64,000 nt of DNA from positions 27,590,001 to 27,654,000 of the forward strand of contig OX597835.1 of NCBI GenBank assembly GCA_951406725.2, read 5' to 3'. The DNA is from Octopus vulgaris. Taxonomy: Eukaryota. A program made the translations under genes and the position numbers. Under the pieces are notes generated by a model. It searched no databases and had not been told where the DNA came from. It worked only from the letters and a program-made list of their open reading frames with translations. Below, piece by piece: positions 13,820 through 59,166 of the stretch (position 1 is its first letter; the number at the start of each line of letters is the position of its first letter).

Positions 13820-14080
13820 TACACACACACATATATGGATAATACACACACATCCATTCACACAGAAGGCTAAAAAAAGAGAAAAAAACTTTTGGAAGCT
13901 TGATCAACAAGATATGAATTTATAACAAAATTTCAAGGTTTGTTTGAAGGGCTCAGTGAGTGTGCAGTGTGCAATTGTACAATAAAGAGGCAACAGTCTA
14001 TATCAGACTCAGTTACAGTGAATTTACAGTGCAATGGTACACAGGAGCACTGCATCTACAGAGTGCAGAAGTATAAATAC

Positions 14081-14089
14081 CTTCACCAC
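14081..14089 (-). CDS. unc-13: 9-nt microexon of unc-13 (VVK)
   Basis: ctttttccgctttctattctccatgcag|GTGGTGAAG|gtattt. Strong pyrimidine tract with UGC, phase 0-0. It lies right after ...VSDL, where other UNC-13s carry a 2-3 aa optional insert (recalled: AM in Munc13-1, VLK in fly). Confidence 0.8.
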
Positions 14090-14811
14090 CTGCATGGAGA
14101 ATAGAAAGCGGAAAAAGTACTTTGGCAGAGTACACTCAGACAATACAGAACTTAATATGCAAGGTTTTTACATTTGAAAATTAATTACAAGCCCGCCACT
14201 TAATTCATTCAGTTATTATTCATTTATTTATTTATTTATTTAAATTCTTCTTTTTTTTTTTTGGTTATTTTATTTGAAATCCTTTTAAAAGTTGTTCTTA
14301 ATATTCAGAACAGCTGAAGGTGGTGGTGGTGGTGGTGGTGGTGGTGGAGGTGTTGGTGAGTAAGCTTGTGATAAATATCATAATGAGCATAAATGTGAGC
14401 AGAGGCTGCTTTGCCGAAGAAACTTATTTAGAAAAAAAACAAACAAATATTGTTGTTATTATTATTAATAATAATTATTATTATTGTCACTTTTAATATT
14501 ATTATTACCATTATTATTTTTTTTTTTTTGGAAATAGTGCTGGCAAAGAGACAATTTACGGCAAGAAAATAAAAGTAGGTTTGTACTATCATGCAATTGA
14601 AATTTTTCACAGAACTAAAAAGCATTTTTGCAGTTCATTTACCCCTATGCAGAAAATGGTGTTAAATTTCTAAATAGTAAAAACAAAGTGATAATTATCA
14701 TAATGAAAATCTGAAAATTTATTTAAAGTATATAAAATTTAGATTAATTTTTCTTAAAAAAAAGAGATTAAATTTTATCATAGAAGCATTTCTAAATTAT
14801 TTGATATAATT

Positions 14812-15967: not shown

Positions 15968-15997
15968 AGAGCAGATGGACTGTTTAGGCGGCTTGAT
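15968..15997 (-). CDS. unc-13: candidate 30-nt cassette microexon of unc-13 (IKPPKQSICS)
   Basis: ttttttatgcatgctgcattag|ATCAAGCCGCCTAAACAGTCCATCTGCTCT|gtaagt. Consensus donor, three UGC just before the AG, phase 0-0. Confidence 0.7.
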
Positions 15998-34618: not shown

Positions 34619-34709
34619 TAGATCACTAACAAAAGGGATAGATTTTCGCCTTGGCTTAATTTCCGGCATACTATCTATACTTGTATAAAATGTATTATGC
34701 TCAGGGGGT
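34619..34709 (-). CDS. unc-13: unc-13 internal exon (91 nt), conserved pre-C1 block
   Basis: Acceptor cttatatcccattacag and donor CTA|gtaagt. Reads (G)PPEHNTFYTSIDSMPEIKPRRKSIPFVSDL, matching the Munc13/UNC-13 motif IDSMPDIR(P/K)R(R/K).IPLVS(D/E)L. Phase 2 to phase 0. Confidence 0.95.
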
Positions 34710-36612
34710 CTGTAATGGGATATAAGATAGAAAAGAAAAATATCTTAGTTCTCTGACCTAAACAGTGACACTAGCATGGGAATTACATTGGTAAGCATCC
34801 ATTTTCCTGAAGAGAAAATTTTTCACCATTTATTATACATGCAAAAGAAACTAAAGAAATATATGAAGAAAATTTTATTTCATCGTATTTTTTTTTTATG
34901 AAAAAACATCAATTTATCAACATTAATAGCTTATATATTACTGACGTAAAAAAAACAAGAATTTAAATTTGTAAACATTGTTACAAATGAGTGTGTGTGA
35001 GTATGTAAATGTTATGTATGTATATGTGTATGAATGTTGTTAATAGCTGTCACACAGTGTAGAACAAAACTGCTTGTAATAAATAATTTTGTCCAAGGAC
35101 TTTCTAACAGTTCTTGAGCCATGTTTGTGTTTAAGTGCGAGGGCGAGTGCACTTGCTACACTACAACTCCTGCACTAATTTGATATATTTTACACACACA
35201 CACACACATACATACAGACATATAAGTCCACAAAAACAAGTACTTCTACTGGTATGTGTGCATGAGTGCAGAGGTATTTAAGAGACTAAAGTTTTGCATG
35301 TTTACATGATACAGTCAGCAACAGACCAAATATACATTATTTTTCTTTCTTAATATCAAAAATATCAACAAAAAAAAAAGAAAAAAAAGAACAAACTTTC
35401 TTTAATGCATGTAACTCTGATCAAAATTCAACATCTGAAATATCACATAACAAATTGAACAAGTCAAAACAAAATAACCTCATGTTTTCTTCTGTTGTGT
35501 GATTTTCACAAGGTGTATCATCCGTTCCTTCCATTTGCTTAGGTAATACACAATTACACAATACACAGGTGCTCAGGATGCAGTCAAGTCTTATACCTTA
35601 TTGAACACTGCATTTTCCCATTTAAAACGAGACAAAATGATCTGTTTCCAATCCATTTGGTTGCCTTGATTGTTTGTGAAATCAGCCCTTAAACCCTAAA
35701 CATTCATCTTATTGTTTACAGTCACTGAGAAATACGAACATTAAGGATCCCTCACATAAAAACAAATGGAAATATCAGATGATATTTTACAATATGTGTG
35801 TATATTACAATGCCATAAAGCATATTTTATATGGGGATATTTATAAATAAATGAAAAAGAGTAAATAAAAATATATATTAAGAATAAGAAAGTTATGAAT
35901 TTTGGCAAACATTATAAAAACTTCAAATTGGGAATATGAAATGTGGGAGTAAATTTTCCACTCGGACATGTATTTTTTCAATACTGTTTGGATTTTATTT
36001 TTTGTCCTTTCTTTAAAATGTGACACATTCCAAAATACGATTAATCGATGATTCCTGTAGGCACACTTATTACTTGGTAATTATAAAAAGTGATTAAAAC
36101 CAGGAGGGTCAGAAACAGAATTTCTGTATGTTTATACTATTATTTTCTTCAACAGTGATGCTTATTATATATATATCTATGTTATACACATCTACACTCA
36201 CATAAAAATATCTGACAAATAATTTCATTTACCCTCCCACTCCCTCTCTTCCTTTATCTATCTCTCTGTACATATATATATATATATATATTATAAAAAA
36301 ATGGGATTGTGTTAGTCAATGTGGCTGTCAATGTTAGTCAAAGTGGCTGTCACTTCCTTCACCCTCTTCTCTCTACTAGCAGAGAGACAGAGGTGCAGAG
36401 AGAGAGAGAGAAACTAATGTTGTGTTCCTTACTCTTCAAACATTCCTTTAATGTATAAACAGCATTTAAACATTTCCTCCTTCTCAATCTCCCAAAGAAC
36501 CAATATTTGTTCCCTCTTTTTTTAACCTTATACAACCATATATATGAAAACATAAAAATGTAGATATAAACAAATATATATATATATATATATATGATGG
36601 GTGTGTGTGAGT

Positions 36613-56651: not shown

Positions 56652-56716
56652 CCTCCATTAGCATGACGAGCCCACCATTTCTCCCTTGAATCTCCATTCA
56701 GACCATCTACCTCGGG
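56652..56716 (-). CDS. unc-13: unc-13 internal exon (65 nt)
   Basis: Acceptor ctttgttttttacag and donor AGG|gtgagt. Reads PEVDGLNGDSREKWWARHANG+GG. Phase 0 to phase 2 bridges the 193-nt and 91-nt exons exactly. Confidence 0.85.
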
Positions 56717-58973: not shown

Positions 58974-59166
58974 GTCTCCTAGCTGACTGCACACTTTTTG
59001 GATTGCATCGATCCAACGATTACGAGCTGGTGAAGGCAGTTCTGTGCGTTTTTCTGTTTCTTTCTCTTCATAAGGTAAATCAGTTGGAGGAGGAGCAGCA
59101 GCATCACTGTAGTCTTGTGTACTCTGTCGGCTGACATCTGCTGAAGAAATTCGGCTATTCACAGGA
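58974..59166 (-). CDS. unc-13: unc-13/Munc13 internal exon (193 nt) containing a calmodulin-binding-like helix
   Basis: Acceptor tcttacttttgcag and donor GAC|gtaagt. Reads xPVNSRISSADVSRQSTQDYSDAAAPPPTDLPYEEKETEKRTELPSPARNRWIDAIQKVCSQLGD. SPARNRWIDAIQKVCSQL aligns with the Munc13-1 CaM site SRAKANWLRAFNKVRMQL. Ends in phase 0, matching the next exon. Confidence 0.88.

Follow-up and report, generated by a model that had tools for sequence, protein, structure and literature searches.

An intron of the Octopus vulgaris unc-13 gene contains a 9-nt cassette exon encoding Val-Val-Lys (VVK), and the same intron holds a second 9-nt exon encoding Val-Met-Lys (VMK). The window analysed here is the whole stretch of 64,000 nucleotides, in which all features of the gene lie on the minus strand (Table 1). 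On balance, we favour the explanation that VVK is an optional exon, likely a duplicate of VMK, that would be skipped by default and switched on in some cells by a member of the CAC-binding RBPMS/couch potato/MEC-8 family. VVK is a real feature in a known microexon slot, and it is the tandem copy and the proposed rewiring that carry the interest. We infer each part of this explanation with a different degree of confidence, which falls from the duplication through default skipping and the regulator to the effect on transmitter release.

Exons of the window match named Octopus Unc13 proteins at 100%, which identifies the host gene as unc-13; its Pfam domains are C1, C2 and MUN. UNC-13 proteins were retrieved with exon B (34709-34619) as the query. 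About 47 residues separate the insert from the Pfam C1 domain that follows it. The insert occupies query residues 50-65 and the solved Munc13-1 chains begin at residue 70 or beyond, so that no structure covering the insert was found among them. In three spliced contigs, from runs X9, X16 and X19, the exon at 56716-56652 is joined to exon B, and these runs therefore hold transcripts. The gene also has an alternative first exon (35534-35479) with a weak donor, AG/GTTATT; a short isoform starting there would lack the upstream regulatory exons. Alternative starts of unc13, with a similarly truncated form, are described for Aplysia in a passage that does not deal with exons (PMC9282427).

Table 1. 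Features of the unc-13 locus, with positions counted from the first letter of the window
Feature	Position	Strand	Basis or remark
VVK cassette exon, 9 nt, phase 0, Val-Val-Lys	14081..14089	minus	sequence and O. sinensis XP_036368120.1
Pyrimidine tract and TGCAG acceptor of VVK	14090..14125	minus	AG-free zone 28 nt; tract predicted to pair with exon
VVK donor AAG/GTATTT	14075..14080	minus	donor hexamer identical in VLK exon of locus L020
Downstream TGCAC/CAC cluster (4 TGCAC, 8 CAC, 5 CAC-N1-12-CAC starts; none upstream)	13956..14067	minus	window sequence
Predicted sense-strand hairpin, 39 pairs (10 G-U)	14040..14160	minus	prediction; encloses exon and both splice sites
27-nt cassette E27, KFNTIFCIG	14643..14669	minus	matches O. 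bimaculoides UVH70864.1
30-nt cassette E30, IKPPKQSICS	15968..15997	minus	joined to exon B in run X9; RefSeq isoforms X1 and X2
Exon B, ends ...FVSDL, phase-0 donor	34619..34709	minus	upstream of cassettes
Alternative first exon, coding part	35479..35534	minus	N-terminus in each of the five O. sinensis RefSeq isoforms examined
Coding exon joined to exon B in runs X9, X16 and X19	56652..56716	minus	spliced contigs
193-nt coding exon of long isoform; acceptor likewise TGCAG	58974..59166	minus	window sequence

On the minus strand, the VVK site reads ctttctattctccatgcag/GTGGTGAAG/gtattt, with the exon at 14089-14081, where a preceding sequence-only reading had placed it. It has the phase and the surroundings of a 9-nt V-x-K exon: phase 0, flanked by ...S[DE]L and T/S-M..KRN. 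It also lies in the correct intron and in the correct order relative to RefSeq XP_036368120.1. Three candidates on the minus strand of the window combine YAG, a 9-nt interval and GTR with a pyrimidine tract, and VVK is the only one of them that encodes V-x-K. A recursive-splice reading of AG/GTGGTG was considered and dropped, as the reconstituted donor would be poor.

The intron after exon B contains at least four short in-frame cassettes, namely E30 (30 nt), E27 (27 nt), VVK and VMK. Neither VMK nor the constitutive exon after it was found in the 64-kb window, and VMK lies beyond it. The acceptor of E30 is the most eMIC-like of the cluster, with UGC at -15, -11 and -8 and CTAAY at -26. E27 is followed within 130 nt by one TGCATG, which we take to be an RBFOX motif. 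Thus, E30, E27 and VVK are three neighbouring cassettes with three different motif sets.

VVK had been expected to be missed by standard gene prediction, but it is already in a public gene model: the O. sinensis RefSeq protein XP_036368120.1 reads SDL-IKPPKQSICS-VVK-VMK-TMVASK. The five O. sinensis RefSeq isoforms contain zero, one or two V-x-K units, being E30-VVK-VMK (X1), E30-VMK (X2), VMK (X3) and no insert (X4 and X5), so that VVK is alternatively used, in one isoform of five, on the basis of the gene model. An O. bimaculoides isoform (UVH70864.1) has E27-VMK. Seventeen cephalopod records were listed, and the site is covered in 14 of them: ten have no insert, and one each has VMK, E30-VMK, E27-VMK and E30-VVK-VMK. 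VMK is therefore present in all four of the insert-bearing records listed and VVK in one of the four, and the inclusion of VVK rests on a single gene model among the 14. None of 17 matches among the shorter proteins is a VVK-bearing fragment.

In the RNA assemblies, run X9 joins exon B to E30, and its contig ends two letters past E30, at the point where VVK and VMK would fork; run X10 joins exon B to VMK and then to the next constitutive exon; run X16 joins exon B directly to the next constitutive exon, skipping every cassette; and the contig of run X19 ends at the junction. The inclusion of VVK is displayed in none of these four assemblies, although contigs drop minor isoforms. Among the runs listed, 20, under six organism labels, contain some of 13880-14200 (shares 0.16-1.0), and none of the 20 is recorded as RNA. 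In particular, the SDL-VVK junction that the sequence-only reading proposed to search for occurs in none of the four assemblies and in none of the 14 cephalopod records listed; in XP_036368120.1, VVK follows E30, is additive with VMK and does not come directly after SDL. Literature on unc-13 microexons, octopus microexons, cephalopod editing and splicing, and molluscan duplication was searched, mostly among papers readable without subscription, and the cassette cluster was not found in the matches listed. The accessible part of the main text of a 20-species study that includes O. bimaculoides does not name unc13 (10.64898/2026.09.05.749416).

To place the two V-x-K exons, we surveyed the named matches in the best 120 of 2192 full-length homologues together with their cluster members. 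Note that for many surveyed records without an insert, isoform choice is as good an explanation as absence. Within this set, VLK was recorded for several insect orders, crustaceans, chelicerates, Priapulus, Haliotis and Gigantopelta, VMK for Pomacea, Candidula and Mactra, and VIK for scallop. Gene models with V-[LMI]-K among the matches listed thus come from beetles including Tribolium, Lepidoptera, Hymenoptera, aphids, crustaceans, chelicerates, a priapulid and molluscs, a distribution that supports an ancestral exon throughout the protostomes. Among the 13 site-covering records listed for the brachiopod Lingula, three, one and nine contain zero, one and two VMQ units, respectively. An AM insert is found at the same position in Branchiostoma and sharks, again among the matches listed. 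Mercenaria, Mytilus, Dreissena, scallop and abalone have unrelated extra cassettes at the slot. The middle residue of VVK is hydrophobic, but it is found in no other surveyed taxon, whereas VMK of the same gene fits V-[LMI]-K exactly. Since VMK matches other molluscs, VVK is more likely an added copy than a retained one. Of the earlier claim that VVK is an ancient microexon retained in a mollusc, the ancient slot and the V-x-K pattern hold, but the copy that matches other molluscs is VMK.

At the nucleotide level, VVK is one base away from the VMK exon of metagenome locus L004 (eight of nine bases match) and two bases away from octopus VMK, a likeness in which the initial GT and the final AAG are partly set by splice-site preference. 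Of 24 metagenome unc-13 loci, five contain a V-x-K microexon; of the other 19, 17 stop before the next exon and two lack the introns at this site. Each of the five microexons is present in one copy in the intron stretch examined, which is complete for four of them. Similarity between the flanks of VVK and those of the five homologous microexons is restricted to the splice sites. VVK is probably a copy of the conserved VMK exon that arose within the lineage.

Some further observations were made on inserts and copies. In two loci without the introns here (L001:4693-4932 and L002:10001-10240), VLK is part of one continuous reading frame, as would be seen if intron loss had fixed the included isoform. 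A second small insert follows NDEEL in Littorina (VMM; P0013, P0014) and in Penaeus (VP; P0205, P0238), and could mark a further microexon slot or come from read-through at a donor. Comparison within the window did not support the VVK flank as a repeat. A sequence similar to the VVK site (ATGCAGGTG...AAGGTATT) occurs at 476-457 of the minus strand; its insert is 10 nt long, it has no pyrimidine tract, and it lies within a different sense-strand hairpin (z -4.7). This look-alike is absent from the blastn listing, and could be a dead third copy or a chance likeness.

The slot is well known from other animals. In C. elegans, the VLK exon of unc-13 resembles the octopus exon in its length of 9 nt, in its pattern of V, hydrophobic residue and K, and in its slot between the CaM site and C1, as well as in having included and skipped isoforms, long flanking introns and candidate downstream control elements (PMC12287369; PMC8378409). 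The sequence-only reading, which placed VVK at the position of a VLK insert in fly Unc13, was right on this point, the slot being that of the worm exon described in PMC12287369. The worm exon is a single copy, whereas VVK is a second copy among four cassettes. The Drosophila exon DmeEX0010016 is likewise 9 nt long, at the same position and with UGC near the acceptor, but VVK, in contrast to it, has neither CTAAY nor a long AG-free zone, is followed by a CAC cluster, and lies in an interval of more than 34 kb rather than between short introns (PMC8797185). The VMK, VLK and VIK exons of molluscs and VMQ-VMQ of Lingula occupy the same slot as VVK, and Lingula likewise uses zero, one or two units; the octopus pair differs from the Lingula pair in that its units are unequal (VVK and VMK), and the 30- and 27-nt cassettes are absent from the other surveyed taxa. 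The chordate insert uses the same junction as V-x-K, but it is 6 nt long and encodes a different peptide (AM in Branchiostoma and sharks); mammalian Unc13c has a 6-nt exon at this position (PMC12287369).

The splice sites of VVK differ from those of its homologues. Its AG-free zone of 28 nt compares with 43-107 nt in the five homologous microexons and with 28-61 nt in other exons of the same gene. No CTAAY branch point was found within 100 nt of the VVK acceptor, whereas CTAAY occurs at this distance in four of the five homologues and in E30. The acceptor of VVK, described earlier as SRRM-type, does have a UGC near the AG, but this single UGC, at -5, overlaps the CAG; the same TGCAG acceptor is found on an ordinary exon of the gene (193 nt), and none of the five homologues has UGC at this place. 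As judged from these motifs, the SRRM-type reading of the acceptor is weak. A CUAAY branch point and a long AG exclusion zone are among the features given for eMIC targets (PMC8797185). The missing CTAAY, the short AG-free zone and an acceptor shared with an ordinary exon lower the probability of eMIC control, which the exon could nevertheless accommodate, since exons can respond to SRRM without a UGC, and a UGC can be situated near the AG (10.1101/2024.09.17.613571).

Downstream of the exon, four TGCAC (starting at 14067, 14033, 13973 and 13966) and a TGCAG (14054) lie within about 130 nt on the minus strand, just as previously read. This is the only stretch in the window with at least four TGCAC per 130 nt (one of 88 anchored occurrences), and four TGCAC were reached in 82 of 20000 local shuffles. 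When the choice of motif is left free, some complex 5-mer occurs four times in 1875 of 20000 shuffles and in 3 of 284 non-simple tiles. Thus, once the choice of motif is allowed for, the enrichment is modest. Two of the four TGCAC arise from one 7-nt tandem repeat, and TGCAC is not enriched in the window as a whole (88 found, 107 expected). CAC-N1-12-CAC starts number five downstream and none upstream, and five are reached by 2 of 285 tiles, possibly including the tile of the cluster itself. The spacers between successive GCAC are 30, 56 and 3 nt, none of which is in the optimal range of more than 6 to about 12 nt (best 10-12); spacers of 7 and 9 nt occur only between GCAC and UCAC. The four TGCAC are predicted to be mostly paired (0.77-0.99). 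The cluster was rejected as an ancestral feature, the five homologous microexons having 0, 0, 0, 0 and 1 TGCAC in 150 nt. Two copies of ATTGCAC, presumably a U1A motif, occur in 9 of 20000 shuffles, but the motif was picked post hoc, and U1A binding was rejected. Of the worm EXC-7/MBL-1 elements, neither TTAAGTT nor GCTTGC was found in the 150 nt downstream of VVK; one TTAAGTT lies upstream, at -66.

RBPMS activates exons from downstream CAC-N1-12-CAC (PMC6613909), and MEC-8 and cpo (couch potato) prefer GCAC (PMC5311487). The cluster fits activating sites of this family as a candidate. VVK resembles the exons activated by these proteins in having CAC dyads only downstream and GCAC cores, but differs from them in that it has no GCAC pair at the optimal spacing and that its sites are putative. 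The exons in the passages concerned of PMC6613909 and PMC5311487 are not microexons.

The exon is predicted to be enclosed in a hairpin on the sense strand. The 3' arm of the hairpin is formed by the first TGCAC and the TGCAG, and the pyrimidine tract is predicted to pair with the exon, which stays paired in the prediction even when these two motifs are forced open. The z score is -3.99 for the sense strand against +0.28 for the antisense strand; the fold is equalled in 4 of 2000 position-preserving shuffles and, when the outer arm is shuffled, in 10 of 1500, and none of seven control exons has z below -2. Opening the donor would cost 13.6 kcal/mol at 20 C, the highest of 11 exons, compared with 2.0-9.3 for ten control exons. 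The hairpin ranks 13th among about 484 tiles, and most of the stronger folds of the window are two-strand DNA palindromes. Note that the hairpin region was chosen after the fold was seen. The inner helix alone is matched by 182 of 3000 shuffles in a fixed frame (p ~0.06), and by 59 of 5000 in a frame picked post hoc. The hairpin was rejected as an ancestral feature, the homologous microexons being matched by 423-2086 of 3000 shuffles, and as an RNA thermometer, the predicted pairing being unchanged between 10 and 37 C. The GluA2 R/G site is a precedent for a role of ADAR. By analogy with this site and with the abundant recoding in coleoid neural tissue (PMC8382921), we infer that ADAR may act at VVK.

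Taken in order, the favoured explanation would run as follows. The conserved VMK exon would have been duplicated, giving VVK in the same intron. The new copy may be skipped by default, since its branch point is poor and the predicted hairpin covers the tract, the exon and the donor, a proposal that we consider evenly balanced. In some cells, a CAC-binding protein at the downstream dyads would promote inclusion; activation through these dyads rather than mainly through eMIC is tentative. Inclusion would then add a second three-residue unit to the linker before C1, and by analogy with the worm, the lengthened linker, about 47 residues before C1, might tune release strength.

One competing explanation, which follows the sequence-only reading, is that VVK represents the ancient neural microexon, or else a co-orthologue on a par with VMK, and is driven by eMIC-containing SRRM through the UGC of the acceptor. 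The slot, length, phase and V-x-K pattern are all the same, the 9-nt fly exon DmeEX0010016 is eMIC-dependent (table S2 of PMC8797185), VVK has a CU-rich tract and a UGC near the AG, and after a duplication both copies would descend from the ancient exon. We consider it unlikely, however, because VMK keeps the molluscan sequence and is the copy found in all insert-bearing cephalopod records listed, the branch point and AG-free zone depart from the features in PMC8797185, the TGCAG acceptor also serves an ordinary exon, and the tract is predicted to be paired, whereas this region tends to be unpaired in vertebrate neural microexons (10.64898/2026.01.16.699960). An origin of VVK de novo from intron sequence, with its likeness to VMK arising by convergence, is less likely still: unrelated inserts have appeared at the slot in Mercenaria, Mytilus, Dreissena, scallop, abalone and octopus (E30 and E27), and outside the splice sites the flanks do not resemble those of the five homologues, but eight of nine bases are shared with a spiralian-type VMK exon, and Lingula shows that tandem copies do arise at this slot.

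It is also conceivable that VVK is rarely used, decaying, or an over-called exon of a gene model without function, the motifs and the hairpin being incidental. This would agree with its occurrence in one of 14 cephalopod records listed and display in none of four RNA assemblies, with splice sites that are predicted to be buried, with a motif cluster that is modest after correction and a hairpin that is just 13th in rank, and with the 10-nt look-alike at 476-457, which lacks a tract and could be a dead copy. Against this, the V-x-K unit preserves the frame, AG/GT and the tract are intact, VVK is the sole V-x-K of three chance candidates, and a gene model with two consecutive 9-nt exons normally would need transcript support; the RNA contigs drop minor isoforms, and that of run X9 ends at the VVK/VMK fork. 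We regard the lack of function as improbable. To a reading in which RNA structure is the main control, with the hairpin hiding the exon and with ADAR binding or editing (of the acceptor A, or of the AAG codon at donor -2, Lys to Arg) setting inclusion, we likewise assign a low probability. The strand-specific z score, the shuffles and the control exons favour it, as do the palindromic nature of most stronger folds and the abundance of coleoid neural recoding (PMC8382921), but the region was chosen post hoc, the inner helix is marginal in the fixed frame, and the pairing shows no thermometer behaviour.

A more specific version of the duplication explanation is that the new copy was rewired: VMK would keep eMIC-type control, while VVK would lie in a G-U-rich hairpin that is opened or edited (by ADAR, with Lys to Arg at donor -2) and would respond to an activator of the RBPMS/cpo type. 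This version as a whole is doubtful. If true, VVK together with E30 and E27 would form a combinatorial, editing-coupled dial on the pre-C1 linker that sets release strength according to neuron type. With two copies in different flanks, a single octopus intron provides a natural paired test of regulator change after microexon duplication. The worm exon at this slot is among the few microexons for which synaptic and behavioural roles are described for both inclusion and skipping (PMC12287369). The V-[LMI]-K survey also bears on the view taken in PMC8797185, where the fly unc-13 exon is unidentified in some of the insects studied and convergence with mouse is favoured.

Several minor features of the window may be added. 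Almost perfect DNA palindromes, with arms of about 50 bp each and folding on both strands, are present at 26420-26300, 6430-6310 and 6650-6530, and are probably small mobile elements. Two nearly identical hairpin-forming stretches, at 39010-38890 and 39520-39400, lie about 510 bp apart as a local tandem duplication. Finally, at 390-358 of the minus strand, a strong pyrimidine tract and CAG are directly followed by AG/GTAAAG, a possible recursive splice site or tiny exon.
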